Shown piece by piece: positions 21,753 through 59,252 of a stretch of DNA of 59,252 bases (positions are counted from its first letter, which is position 1; each line of letters opens with the position of its first letter). Source of the stretch: Clostridia bacterium (GTDB lineage: Bacteria; Bacillota; Clostridia; Christensenellales; UBA1242); NCBI GenBank assembly GCA_017619495.1, contig JAFZSF010000012.1, forward strand, positions 1-59,252, given 5' to 3'. The notes under the pieces were generated by a model, which saw only the letters and a list, made by a program, of their open reading frames with translations, was not told the origin of the DNA and made no database searches. A program made the translations under genes and the position numbers.

Positions 21753-22217
21753 TTAATAAATGATTTTGTCGGCTTTTTGTTCGTATTTTTGAAATAATTC
21801 TAAGCATGGTTCGTAGTCAATTTGAATCATGCGTTTTTTTAATTGTTTATCTGAAATGGAAAGATATTTGTAAAAAACTTCATCGCGGAAGCCGATAGCG
21901 TCATTGTCGGTAACGCTGCAACCGTAATAAATTTTGTTGATGTTCGCCCATAAACAAGCACCAAGACACATTGGGCACGGCTCCGCAGTTGTATAGATGT
22001 CCGCGCCAGTTAAATCAAAACTGTTGAGATGTTTACAAGCGTCCTGAATGGCGGCAATTTCGCCGTGGTAGGTCGGGTCTAGGTCTTTAACAACTTGGTT
22101 ATGACCGGAACCGATAACTTTACCATCTTTGACAATTACGGCGCCAAAAGGACCACCATGTCCCATGGCAATACCAAGTTCGGCTTCGTTAATCGCTAGT
22201 TTCATGTATTGATTCAT
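21753..22217 (-). CDS. CMP/dCMP-type zinc deaminase (guanine deaminase / nucleoside deaminase family)
   Basis: HGE ... PCPMCLGA zinc-binding motifs. The N-terminal part of the track ORF (to 22367) overlaps a tRNA gene, so the start is set at MNQYMKLAINEA. Confidence 0.85.
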   Translation of the reverse strand: MNQYMKLAINEAELGIAMGHGGPFGAVIVKDGKVIGSGHNQVVKDLDPTYHGEIAAIQDACKHLNSFDLTGADIYTTAEPCPMCLGACLWANINKIYYGCSVTDNDAIGFRDEVFYKYLSISDKQLKKRMIQIDYEPCLELFQKYEQKADKIIY

Positions 22218-22316
22218 TAGTAAAATATAGTACAAGACATAAAAAGTGTCACCAATTTTTTGTGGTGTAATAAACCAGATGGACAGTTGGTAAAGTAGTG
22301 TTTTGCGTAACAAAAT

Positions 22317-22393
22317 TGGTGCGAACGAGAGGATTTGAACCTCCAAAAATGCGCTTCTGAGACGCACGCGTATGCCAGTTCCGCCACGCTCGC
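22317..22393 (-). tRNA. tRNA-Leu (CAG), 77 nt, with a short 5-nt variable loop
   Basis: The minus strand reads GCGAGCG TG GCGGAACTGGCATACGC G TGCGT CTCAGAA GCGCA TTTTT GGAGG TTCAAAT CCTCT CGTTCGC A CCA. It has a Leu-type D-arm and A73. A TTGACA/TATGCT promoter lies upstream. Confidence 0.8.
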
Positions 22394-22485
22394 ATGTGGT
22401 ATAGCATAAATCATTTCGACCGCTTTGTCAAAACTTGTGTGAAAATGCGTTTGTCAAAAAGTGTGTTTATGTGTAATTTATAACT

Positions 22486-25062
22486 GTGGTATTAAAACGC
22501 ATTATGATGAATGGCTTTAAGTCGTTCGCCGACAAAATCGAAATTGATTTTGGCGCGGGTATTACGGGTATTGTCGGCCCCAATGGGTGCGGCAAAAGTA
22601 ATGTTAGTGATGCGATTAAATGGGTATTGGGAGAACAGAGTTACAAGGCTGTGCGTGGCGGATCCATGCAAGATGTGATTTTTAAGGGAACGGCTAACCG
22701 CAAAATGCAATCGTACGCCGAAGTGGCGTTAGTCTTTGATAACCATACTCATGTGTTTGAAATTGATGAAAGTGAAGTAACAATTTCGCGTAAGTTGTAT
22801 CGTGATGGTGAAAGCGAGTATGCTTTGAACGGACAACCGACGCGTTTGAAAGATATTAATAATTTGTTACATGACAGCGGTATTGACCGTGACGGTTTAA
22901 CAATTATTAGTCAAGGGCAGGTCGCGGATTTAGTTTCCGCTAAGCCGGAAAATCGCCGTGGAATTTTTGAGGAAGCCGCGGGCATTGCTAAGTTCCGTGC
23001 GCGTAAAGATGAAGCTGAGCGTAAGTTAGATCGTACAAGTCAAGAGTTAGTGCGCGTAAGTGATGTCTTAGCGGAAATTGAACGCAATTTAGGGCCGTTA
23101 ATGAAGCAAGCCGAAAAAGCGCAAAAGTACTTACAATTAAAAGAAGAATTAAAGCATTTAGAAATTAATTTGTTCATTTATAAATACGACCATGTCGCGG
23201 AAGAAAAGGCTAAAGCCCAAGCCGAAGCCGATAAATTGGATAAAGAACTGAAAGCATTGCAAGGTCAATTGGAAATGATGGACCGCGCGAGTGCGAATGG
23301 CATGCAAGAACTATCTGCGCTGGATAAAAAAGTGGCAGAATTGCGCGACCAAATTTTGGCATTATCTTTAGATAGTCAACGCCAAAGCGGCGAACAATTA
23401 TTATATCAAGCGACGGCGGATAGTTTGCACCAAGCCGAACTGCAACGCGAGCAATTACTGTCGAAAAAACAAATGATTGCCAATATTATTGATTCGGGCG
23501 AAGGTTTCAAATTCAGTGTGAAAAAGCTAATTGAAGAACGCAATCGTAACAGTGCGGTAGCGCGTGCGATTGTGGGTGTGGTGTCGCAAGAGTTGACGGT
23601 ACCGTCAGAATTAGAAACTGCGATTGAAATGGCGTTGGGGGCGGCAGCACAGAATGTGATTACCCACGATGAAGAAGACGCCAAGGAATTAGTGCACTTA
23701 TTAGCGAGTAAGAACTTAGGACGCGCCACATTCTTGCCGATTACCGCGGTTAAAGCACGCGACATTAAACCCGAAGAACGCGCAATTTTGCGCGGTATGG
23801 GTAAGCGTGTTTTGGGTGTCGCTAGTGAATTAGTTGAGTATAAACCGGAAATTGCCGGTGTAATTTCAAATTTATTAGGACGGGTGATTGTTTGTGATAA
23901 TTTGGACTCGGCAATCGCATTGTCGCGTCAGGCTCATTATGCTTTCAAAGTGGTCACCTTGGACGGTGATATCATTGAACCGCGTGGTAGTATTACCGGC
24001 GGTAGTAAAAACTCAGTAACCAATACTTTATGGCATACGAATAACTTAAAACAAATTGAAGCACAATTAGTTGAGGTCGATAAAAATATTGCCACCTTAC
24101 GGGAAAAACTGAGTCAATTAAAAGTTGATACTAAGGACAATCATCTAAGCGAAGCCCAAAAGCAATTGGAACATTTAAAAGACGAATTGGCGAAAACGCT
24201 TGCGGAACGCGATAATTTACACTATGCCACGGGTACTTCGGTTTCGGGTCGTACCGAGTTGTCAGAGCAGATTAATACTTTGCAAGTAAAATATTATTAC
24301 GCAACCAATTTGTTAACCCGCATGGACGCCGAAATTGAAAATTTAAGTCAGCGTATTGCCGATGAATATAATTTGAATTACAGTGCTTGTTATGAACAAC
24401 GCGATCCGGCGTTTAATCTTGAAACCGCTGAACCACGCGTTGATGAATTACGCCGTGCGATTCAACATCTGGGCAATGTTAACTTAGATGCAATTGAACA
24501 AGTTAAAACTGACAGTGAACGCTACGAAAGTTATAAAGCGCAAAGTGATGACTTGTTTGCGGCGAAACAAGATTTGGAAAAAGTCATGCGCGATTTGTCG
24601 CAACAAATGGAAAAGAACTTTAAAACGGCGTTTGAACAAATCAACAAAAACTTCGGCACTGTGTTCCAAGAATTATTTGGTGGCGGCAGTGCAAAGTTGG
24701 TTTTAACCGATGAAGAAAATTTCTTGGAATGCGGTATTGATATTATCGCTGAACCGCCGGGTAAGAAATTGGCTAACATTTCGTTAATGTCGGGTGGGGA
24801 AAAGGCTCTGACAGCGATTGCGATTTTGTTCGCTATCTTGAAATATAAAACGATGCCATTCTGTTTACTTGACGAAATTGAAGCGGCTTTGGACGATGCT
24901 AATGTTTCGCGCTTTGCCAGTTACTTGCATCGTTTCTCGGGTGAAACACAATTTATCGTGATTACGCACCGTAAACCGACAATGGAGTTGGCGGACCGTC
25001 TGTACGGTATTACCATGGAAGAGAAGGGTATCAGTAAGATTGTATCGGTCAAATTGGCATAA
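22486..25062 (+). CDS. smc: chromosome segregation protein SMC (short, 858 aa)
   Basis: GTG start giving MVLKRIMMNGFKSFADK. Walker A is GPNGCGKSN, the hinge spans about aa 340-505 (GRATFLP...GGS), the signature is LMSGGEK, and Walker B is LLDEIEAALD. Confidence 0.9.
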   Translation: MVLKRIMMNGFKSFADKIEIDFGAGITGIVGPNGCGKSNVSDAIKWVLGEQSYKAVRGGSMQDVIFKGTANRKMQSYAEVALVFDNHTHVFEIDESEVTISRKLYRDGESEYALNGQPTRLKDINNLLHDSGIDRDGLTIISQGQVADLVSAKPENRRGIFEEAAGIAKFRARKDEAERKLDRTSQELVRVSDVLAEIERNLGPLMKQAEKAQKYLQLKEELKHLEINLFIYKYDHVAEEKAKAQAEADKLDKELKALQGQLEMMDRASANGMQELSALDKKVAELRDQILALSLDSQRQSGEQLLYQATADSLHQAELQREQLLSKKQMIANIIDSGEGFKFSVKKLIEERNRNSAVARAIVGVVSQELTVPSELETAIEMALGAAAQNVITHDEEDAKELVHLLASKNLGRATFLPITAVKARDIKPEERAILRGMGKRVLGVASELVEYKPEIAGVISNLLGRVIVCDNLDSAIALSRQAHYAFKVVTLDGDIIEPRGSITGGSKNSVTNTLWHTNNLKQIEAQLVEVDKNIATLREKLSQLKVDTKDNHLSEAQKQLEHLKDELAKTLAERDNLHYATGTSVSGRTELSEQINTLQVKYYYATNLLTRMDAEIENLSQRIADEYNLNYSACYEQRDPAFNLETAEPRVDELRRAIQHLGNVNLDAIEQVKTDSERYESYKAQSDDLFAAKQDLEKVMRDLSQQMEKNFKTAFEQINKNFGTVFQELFGGGSAKLVLTDEENFLECGIDIIAEPPGKKLANISLMSGGEKALTAIAILFAILKYKTMPFCLLDEIEAALDDANVSRFASYLHRFSGETQFIVITHRKPTMELADRLYGITMEEKGISKIVSVKLA

Positions 25063-34033: not shown

Positions 34034-34039
34034 TTAATT

Positions 34040-34116
34040 TGGTGTCAGCGACAGGACTTGAACCTGCAAAAACTGGTTCCTAAGACCAGCGCGTATGCCA
34101 ATTCCGCCACGCTGAC
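34040..34116 (-). tRNA. tRNA-Leu (UAG), 77 nt, with a short 5-nt variable loop
   Basis: The minus strand reads GTCAGCG TG GCGGAATTGGCATACGC G CTGGT CTTAGGA ACCAG TTTTT GCAGG TTCAAGT CCTGT CGCTGAC A CCA. A tgTTATAAT promoter lies upstream. Confidence 0.8.
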
Positions 34117-34242
34117 AATAGGTCATTATAACAGATAAAGTTAATTCTGAAAACTGAATAGTTAAGAAAGCTTGCGGTCGCGGGCTTTTCTTTGTCAGTA
34201 CTTTAAAGACGGCGAGTTCGTTTTTACACTAATGGAAAGGTC

Positions 34243-58930: not shown

Positions 58931-59252
58931 TAATATTAGAGTTTGATTCTGGCTCAGGACGAACGCTGGCGGCGTGCTTAATACATGCAAGTCGAACGGA
59001 TATGTAGCAATACATATTAGTGGCGGACGGGTGAGTAACGCGTAACCAACCTGCCTTTTACAGGGGAATAACACTTGGAAACAGGTGCTAATACCGCATA
59101 TGACCACAACGCGGCATCGCGAAGGGGTAAAAGTTTTATCGGTAAAAGAGGGGGTTGCGTATCATTAGCTTGTTGGTGAGGTAACGGCCCACCAAGGCGA
59201 CGATGATTAACCGGCCTGAGAGGGTAAATGGTCACACTGGAACTGAGACACG
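58931..59252 (+). rRNA. rrs: 16S ribosomal RNA, 5' part (runs off the window)
   Basis: AGAGTTTGATTCTGGCTCAGGACGAACGCTGGCGGCGTGCTTAATACATGCAAGTCGAACGG at 58938 onward. The exact 5' end is estimated. Confidence 0.95.

Follow-up and report, generated by a model that had tools for sequence, protein, structure and literature searches.

Two short-arm leucine tRNA genes conserved on the chromosome of a gut 'Clostridia' bacterium, probable readers of rare CUN codons

In the textbook view bacterial tRNA-Leu always belongs to class II, the tRNAs with a long variable arm. Animal mitochondrial tRNA-Leu(UUR) and tRNA-Leu(CUN) are of class I length and are charged by a bacterial-type leucyl-tRNA synthetase (LeuRS) without a long arm, and minimal-substrate work on E. 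coli tRNALeu is said to have demonstrated LeuRS recognition without the variable arm as well. The single bacterial exception characterised so far, described biochemically in 2019, is the type I (short variable loop) tRNALeu(CAA) of Streptomyces coelicolor, which has a 5-nt loop and is leucylated by a single LeuRS (PMC6614811). This tRNA needs five nucleotides including nucleotide 48, while their base identity is irrelevant, and the catalytic efficiency of the S. coelicolor LeuRS is lower on type I than on type II tRNALeu (PMC6614811). Bacterial LeuRS disregards the anticodon and depends little on the arm. For the Aquifex LeuRS, deletion of the arm mainly reduces affinity and deletion of U48 abolishes charging (PMC2377443). 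In 2019, too, a short-loop tRNA-Leu(TAG) was noted in a mycobacterial tRNA cluster (PMC6582537). Here we describe two type I tRNA-Leu genes in a 59,252-nt stretch of DNA (the window), which makes up the initial 59 kb of a metagenome contig of 64 kb (JAFZSF010000012.1) from an uncultured ruminant-gut bacterium, assigned to Clostridia. A first-pass annotation of the same letters had pointed out both genes and held short-arm tRNA-Leu to be known mainly from animal mitochondria. The Streptomyces (PMC6614811) and mycobacterial (PMC6582537) examples contradict this view, and the rarity that it implies is at odds with at least 119 stretches of a collection with one genome per species and at least 120 viral contigs that carry the form. 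Where the annotation suggested that bacterial LeuRS can do without the arm, it is in line with the published work on both enzymes (PMC6614811, PMC2377443).

The two genes, with the evidence for each, are as follows.

22317..22393, reverse strand: tRNA-Leu(CAG), 77 nt including the encoded CCA (ARAGORN, Rfam, sequence, covariation)

34040..34116, reverse strand: tRNA-Leu(UAG), 77 nt including the encoded CCA, type I architecture (ARAGORN, Rfam, sequence)

Read from 22393 to 22317, tRNA-Leu(CAG) folds as GCGAGCG-UG-GCG-GAACUGGCAUA-CGC-G-UGCGU-CUCAGAA-GCGCA-UUUUU-GGAGG-UUCAAAU-CCUCU-CGUUCGC-A-CCA, with a 7-bp acceptor stem, a 3-bp D stem with an 11-nt D loop, the T arm GGAGG-UUCAAAU-CCUCU and the discriminator A73. 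Its anticodon CAG maps to 22359-22357 and its variable loop UUUUU to 22349-22345. In tRNA-Leu(UAG) the anticodon UAG lies at 34082-34080, followed by G37 after G36, and the variable loop, again UUUUU, at 34072-34068. In both genes the leucine anticodon forms positions 34-36 of a 7-nt loop with U33, and the long variable arm of class II (a stem-loop of more than 10 nt) is absent, with 5 nt between the anticodon and T stems. The hand fold and sequence given for 22317-22393 in the first-pass annotation match the window exactly. The 5-nt loop in place of the long arm, together with the Leu D arm, A73 and the encoded CCA, holds for both genes, and the second, compensated Leu isoacceptor expected at 34040-34116 is indeed a tRNA-Leu(UAG) with a UUUUU loop.

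This assignment is further supported by ARAGORN, which calls a tRNA-Leu(cag) and a tRNA-Leu(tag) of 77 nt each with the anticodon at raw position 35, and by the general tRNA model of Rfam (RF00005), which scores 54.5 bits for the CAG gene and 61.0 bits for the UAG gene against a gathering score of 29. When the window was searched for a Leu D arm followed by a short spacer and a T loop, these were the only two sites to match; 100 shuffles gave an expectation of 0.00 matches. The thermodynamic minimum free energy fold of tRNA-Leu(CAG) is unremarkable (z = -0.86); weak z-scores of this kind are common for tRNAs. The same two genes are present in independent ENA, NCBI metagenome-assembled genome (MAG) and Logan assemblies, which come from different samples and assemblers. 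An assembly artefact, which had been named beforehand as a possible refutation, is thus excluded.

Two side observations concern the anticodon arm. At window position 22356 the CAG gene has A37 after G36, where the UAG gene has the G37 that we take to be the expected m1G37 site of TrmD. As A37 is also seen in several long-arm tRNA-Leu(CAG) genes from metagenomes, it is probably a normal variant. In addition, the 5-bp anticodon stem-loop followed by five U's (22345-22376 and 34068-34089) looks like a weak intrinsic terminator located within the tRNA gene. In relatives the U run is interrupted (UUCUU or UUUCU), and a terminator scan reported nothing there.

The leucine character of both tRNAs is evident from the body of the molecule. 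The D arm is UGGCGGAAYUGGCAUACGCG in both genes, with a 3-bp stem and the 11-nt loop GAAYUGGCAUA, and the exact 21-nt D-arm string also occurs in 118 canonical long-arm tRNA-Leu genes on metagenome contigs, among the matches listed. When metagenomes were searched with this D arm and a free spacer, 118 of the 120 matches listed were long-armed and two short-armed. Outside the variable region both tRNAs are 81-83% identical to long-arm tRNA-Leu. The identity set of bacterial LeuRS comprises A73, U8-A14, A15-U48 and G18/G19 with the T loop (PMC2377443), and both genes contain the complete published set (A73, U8, A14, A15, G18G19, U48 and the TTCAAAT T loop), U48 being the last U of the UUUUU loop. 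Codon usage within the window tells how the codons in question are read: all 11 CUG and CUA codons of the SMC gene fall on leucine or hydrophobic columns of an alignment with 46 homologues, with leucine in 42-46 of the 46 at the CUG sites 662, 775 and 839 and in 36 of the 46 at the CUA site 348. Both tRNAs would serve infrequent codons, since among 15,246 codons of the window UUA and UUG account for 78% of those for leucine and the CUN box as a whole for 22%, a rare-codon role which parallels that in S. coelicolor.

Both genes are strongly conserved within their lineage. The CAG gene is 95-100% identical in five related MAGs (L031, L064, L077, L085, L090), lying beside SMC in each, while the surrounding DNA in the same five MAGs is 74-83% identical. 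The UAG gene is identical in one relative (L078) and differs at one position in another (L035), with flanks that are 64-71% identical. The difference between the tRNAs (95-100%) and the neighbouring genes (64-83%) clearly indicates purifying selection on both tRNA genes. Covariation was analysed in 10 lineage sequences, in which 99.2% of the stem cells are paired and both partners have changed in 9 of the 20 pairs; the observed pairing was not approached in any of 500 shuffles or by a shift of register. The only variable-loop variants in relatives are UUCUU and UUUCU, so that the 5-nt length and U48 are constant. The UAG form is more widely conserved than the CAG form, and may be the older of the two.

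In relatives of the UAG gene on X24 and X25 contigs that align with window positions 34039-34116, from sheep-gut and other metatranscriptome assemblies, the D loop is one U shorter (GGAAUGG versus GGAAUUGG); D-loop length within the clade varies by 1 nt.

Taken together, we consider it likely that both genes are working type I leucine tRNAs, charged by LeuRS and used for the rare CUN codons. In the mechanism that we propose, each of these solitary chromosomal genes would have a promoter of its own, and its transcript would be processed to the 77-nt tRNA with encoded CCA, while the single bacterial-type LeuRS of the cell would charge both tRNAs with leucine. The enzyme would read A73 and the shape of core and elbow, i.e. 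U8-A14, A15-U48, G18/G19 with the T loop, the 3-bp D stem and the 11-nt D loop, independently of the anticodon and of a long arm, while the UUUUU loop would preserve the minimum length and the nucleotide at position 48 required by the tRNA core. The CAG tRNA is predicted to decode CUG, and the UAG tRNA CUA and probably other CUN codons. Most likely, the two genes go back to an ordinary long-arm tRNA-Leu whose variable stem-loop was deleted in the ancestor of this 'Clostridia/Eubacteriales' family from ruminant and animal guts. Such an in-situ deletion is favoured because the window tRNAs resemble long-arm tRNA-Leu.

The remaining leucine codons would be read differently. A relative whose SMC is 67% identical (L125) encodes a canonical 87-nt long-arm tRNA-Leu(UAA), and another relative a long-arm tRNA-Ser. 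From these it appears most likely that long-arm UUR and short-arm CUN tRNAs coexist in one cell, as in Streptomyces. No UAA or CAA tRNA-Leu of this lineage was found among the matches listed of the D-arm metagenome search. The part of the genome covered amounts to ~74 kb, the 64-kb contig plus 10 kb from a second assembly. Each tRNA gene in it is present once, with an anticodon of its own; the added 10 kb contributes one tRNA-Ala(CGC) and no additional tRNA for Leu, Ser or Tyr. That the entire CUN box is decoded only by short-arm tRNAs in this gut-bacterial family, with no long-arm back-up, is a more tentative proposal, which we regard as quite possible without favouring it. If true, a cellular lineage, as opposed to an organelle or a mobile array, would for the first time be seen to have switched tRNA class for a complete codon box in housekeeping Leu decoding, and its LeuRS would have adapted to serve the short-arm tRNAs for CUN alongside the long-arm ones for UUR.

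A search for leuS returned no gene in the ~74 kb covered nor in any lineage locus. An apparent LeuRS gene adjoining SMC in a relative (L127/L128) turned out to encode ValRS, as identified by its PPPNVT...HIGHA motif. The runs X9 and X10 ('organism A') were considered as isolates and rejected, each containing several strains of the lineage together with other taxa.

Several findings weigh against the interpretation of both genes as working CUN tRNAs that arose in place. In a relative whose SMC is 72% identical (GCA_964370495.1) the UAG gene is present and the CAG gene is absent at the syntenic site, and thus the CAG isoacceptor is dispensable or mobile within the family. In metatranscriptomes the genes are crossed by a few low-depth contigs, with flanks attached and mostly from relatives, which may reflect DNA carry-over. 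The LeuRS of E. coli does not charge Streptomyces type I tRNALeu (PMC6614811), so that acceptance of short-arm tRNALeu depends on the enzyme. An outgroup with a long-arm tRNA at the same locus was sought and not found: SMC homologues of 50-72% identity showed no conserved synteny. The same was the case for TadA-like homologues (64-69% identity) and for the 275-amino-acid (aa) neighbour of the UAG gene, whose four homologues all lie on 1-kb contigs. Canonical long-arm CAG and UAG genes may also be located elsewhere in the genome, outside the ~74 kb covered.

In the context of the two genes, consensus scans identified the following sites.

22403..22431, reverse strand: promoter-like TTGACA-17 nt-TATGCT (consensus scan, 10/12 matches)

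34125..34153, reverse strand: promoter-like TTTTCA-17 nt-(TG)TATAAT (consensus scan, 10/12 matches, extended -10 TG)

22241..22267, reverse strand: terminator-like hairpin with a T-rich tail (consensus scan, weak 5-bp stem)

Both promoter-like sites, which are consensus matches only, end 9 nt upstream of the respective mature tRNA 5' end. The TTGACA/TATGCT promoter attributed to the CAG gene in the first-pass annotation corresponds to the site at 22431-22403, as a consensus match. The terminator-like hairpin lies ~50 nt downstream of tRNA-Leu(CAG) and ahead of a deaminase gene, and would make this tRNA monocistronic, upstream of the deaminase gene. Overall, the window is ordinary bacterial chromosome with ~40% G+C and the standard code. 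It encodes enolase, SMC, CysRS, HisRS, a class I aminoacyl-tRNA synthetase, a D-Ala-D-Ala carboxypeptidase and a 16S rRNA gene, and eight tRNA genes are scattered over the 59 kb, single-copy and each with an encoded CCA. The two Leu genes are solitary, the nearest tRNA genes being 3.8-5 kb distant. Their neighbours are SMC, a TadA-like deaminase, the D-Ala-D-Ala carboxypeptidase, a glutathione peroxidase, a surface protein with leucine-rich repeats and unknowns; no integrase, transposase, phage, homing/HNH or other mobility domain was found beside either gene. Nor is there, in the 59-kb window, a dense co-oriented run of tRNA genes around them as in mobile arrays or phage clusters. Public runs containing the contig derive from sheep, bovine and other gut metagenomes, and the related MAGs are labelled 'Clostridia bacterium', 'Eubacteriales bacterium' or, through mis-binning, 'Prevotella sp.'.

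Some of these neighbours deserve a comment of their own. The deaminase that follows immediately after tRNA-Leu(CAG) and is co-oriented with it (21753-22208, reverse strand) is a 151-aa CMP/dCMP-type zinc deaminase whose best NCBIfam match is TadA, with 71.6 bits under a cut-off of 150 bits. Its pairing with the tRNA is found in the closest relatives only, and in a relative at 64% identity the tRNA upstream is a long-arm tRNA-Ser(CGA). SMC (22486-25062, forward strand) comprises 858 aa, similar to its closest relatives (848-883 aa), while most Clostridia matches have ~1190 aa. The short length, together with the fact that the SMC model matches in three stretches, suggests that the SMC of this clade has a shortened coiled coil. 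The 16S rRNA gene, which occupies 58931-59252 of the window and continues in L123:13018-14531, is complete (1511.8 bits) and is followed by protein-coding genes and the tRNA-Ala(CGC) on the other strand. As no 23S gene is found within 3.5 kb of it, the rRNA genes appear to be unlinked.

To place the two genes among other short-arm tRNA-Leu we used a genome scan with one genome per species, in which the Leu D arm was required to lie 26-28 nt from the T loop. At least 119 stretches (L001-L119) carry a short-arm tRNA-Leu, from Acidobacteriota, Flavobacteriia, Nostocales and other cyanobacteria, Clostridia, Proteobacteria, a Mollicutes MAG and Nardonella. Among the matches listed, 91 of the 119 loci have at least four tRNA genes within 8 kb and correspond to the mobile long tRNA arrays described before (PMC8421152, PMC4758250); examples of such arrays with short-armed Leu genes are L002, L012, L039, L041, L083 and L107. 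In the 51 densest array loci, again among the matches listed, the additional Leu genes are short in 65 of 74 cases and long in nine, while the long arm is kept by 54 of 54 Ser and 41 of 43 Tyr genes. In IMG/VR, at least 120 viral contigs (L253-L372) carry the form, often inside phage tRNA clusters; the loci listed contain 158 short and 39 long tRNA-Leu, with the anticodons mostly CAA, UAG and UAA. A search of viral contigs with a free spacer found five of 116 genes with this D arm to be short-armed (~4%), among the matches listed. In mobile arrays tRNA-Leu thus appears to be short-armed by default, and many phages carry the same form, while the arms of Ser and Tyr tRNAs are retained. This points to a selective reason: short-arm tRNAs may be favoured as more compact, or because they evade nucleases or toxins directed at long-arm tRNAs. 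The descriptions of long tRNA arrays that were consulted do not discuss the short-arm form of tRNA-Leu.

Three further observations were made in these genomes. The complete, extremely reduced 200-kb genome of the endosymbiont Candidatus Nardonella dryophthoridicola contains a solitary short-arm tRNA-Leu(UAG) (L091:5664-5739) with the loop UAUUU and no encoded CCA, located between tRNA-Gln and tRNA-Met, which is presumably a housekeeping tRNA. A Mollicutes bacterium MAG (L109:3612-3689) has a short-arm tRNA-Leu(CAA) with the window-type D arm and a variable loop of six U's; the short-arm form therefore also exists for the UUG decoder in a small-genome, Bacillota-like lineage. Arrays also hold long-arm tRNAs with the class I anticodons UAU, GCA, CUA and CAU according to ARAGORN, namely Ile(tat) of 90-93 nt (L002, L004, L040), Cys(gca) of 83 nt (L006, L013, L038, L050 and others), Pyl(cta) of 97 nt (L075) and Met(cat) of 97 nt (L105). 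These presumably resemble the published allo-tRNAs.

The abundance of the form in arrays provides the basis for the strongest alternative, namely that the two window genes are functional but supernumerary copies, derived from a mobile array or phage, beside routine long-arm CAG and UAG tRNAs elsewhere in the genome. Most short-arm loci listed lie in dense arrays, viral contigs carry the form as well, and long tRNA arrays are known to spread horizontally and to supply extra tRNAs (PMC8421152; arrays also in PMC4758250). In the Anabaena array 23 of 26 tRNAs are aminoacylated in vivo, the short-arm Leu members not being specified (PMC8421152). The absence of the CAG gene from the syntenic site in one relative would fit such an origin, and the genome beyond the ~74 kb covered could carry long-arm copies. 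Against this, both genes are solitary, have promoter-like sites of their own and no adjacent mobile-element genes, and have kept 95-100% identity throughout a clade of family rank, in conserved surroundings of housekeeping genes, and all tRNAs in the ~74 kb are single-copy with distinct anticodons. The closest type I tRNA-Leu from an array or phage is at most 77% identical to the window genes, among the matches listed, compared with 81-83% for cellular long-arm tRNA-Leu, although the comparison is biased by the search patterns used and this bias, too, counts against our interpretation. As to a phage donor, GenBank phages gave one weak unannotated match to a window tRNA and no specific donor. 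On balance we regard supernumerary copies as unlikely.

That the two genes are not leucine tRNAs at all, being a class I tRNA of another isotype with a shifted anticodon, or that CUG and CUA have been reassigned, is very improbable. A missing long arm is the usual warning sign for a conflict between isotype and anticodon, and an armless 'tRNA-Leu' is usually explained by an anticodon shift from another isotype (PMC8450103). However, among tRNAs of at most 80 nt in the retrieved loci, the 40 nearest neighbours of the window genes are all Leu, the best non-Leu tRNA reaching a score of 27.5-28 as compared with 41-43. Together with the similarity to long-arm tRNA-Leu and a D arm identical to that of the 118 long-arm genes listed, alongside A73, this rules out a shifted anticodon. 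Reassignment is contradicted by the position of CUG and CUA on conserved leucine columns, and the 41 open reading frames of the window contain no in-frame stop and nothing else that would indicate a variant genetic code. Decaying pseudogenes, or an arm lost in assembly, are the least probable explanation of all: MAG assemblies can collapse or truncate repeats and the fold score of the CAG gene is weak, but the same 77-nt genes recur across samples, assemblers and databases, with all stems intact, compensatory changes in them and conservation far above that of the flanks.

The interpretation of the two genes as working leucine tRNAs has several implications. They would be a second case, phylogenetically distant from the single characterised exception in Streptomyces, and one with two conserved isoacceptors of housekeeping appearance. 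The Streptomyces exception had been described as a rare mode of recognition. For tRNA annotation, isotype models may flag short-arm tRNA-Leu as conflicts or pseudogenes. The genes also bear on the co-evolution of LeuRS and tRNA, i.e. on the features of LeuRS that allow dual recognition, and on synthetic biology, where compact orthogonal Leu tRNAs may be of use. Our knowledge of how the genetic code is read is unchanged by the finding.

It is instructive to compare the window genes with the known systems. Like S. coelicolor tRNALeu(CAA), they are bacterial and chromosomal, have a 5-nt variable loop and serve a rarely used class of Leu codons. The two cases differ in phylum (Actinomycetota versus a gut member of the Bacillota/'Clostridia'), in anticodon (CAA versus CAG and UAG) and in the loop itself (ACAGC versus UUUUU). 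While Streptomyces has one type I tRNA among five isoacceptors, the window has at least two isoacceptors which would cover the whole four-codon box. In Streptomyces A73 is not used for recognition and C74 is important (PMC6614811). As there is no sequence relation beyond general Leu features, the type I tRNA-Leu of Streptomyces and of the window appear to be of independent origin.

The arm-deleted tRNALeu of Aquifex is recognised via A73 and the tertiary core, with the arm contributing binding energy (PMC2377443); these are laboratory constructs, whereas the window genes are natural and have been maintained in evolution. Mitochondrial tRNA-Leu are organellar and AT-biased, and their D and T loops are often degenerate. 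In contrast, the window tRNAs have a canonical core (G18G19, a TTCAAAT T loop and 7/3/5/5 stems) and reside on a bacterial chromosome with 16S and aminoacyl-tRNA synthetase genes. The short-arm tRNA-Leu of arrays and phages share with them the Leu D arm, a variable loop of 4-6 nt, A73 and often an encoded CCA, but are extra copies spread by horizontal transfer, lie close together and are often poorly expressed, while the window genes are solitary, have promoter-like sites, are syntenic with housekeeping genes and are conserved within a clade. The window genes are thus a further example of a known rare form, the bacterial type I tRNA-Leu, and not a new kind of molecule. They are unusual in one respect only, in that they are solitary, promoter-bearing and clade-conserved chromosomal genes and not passengers of an array.

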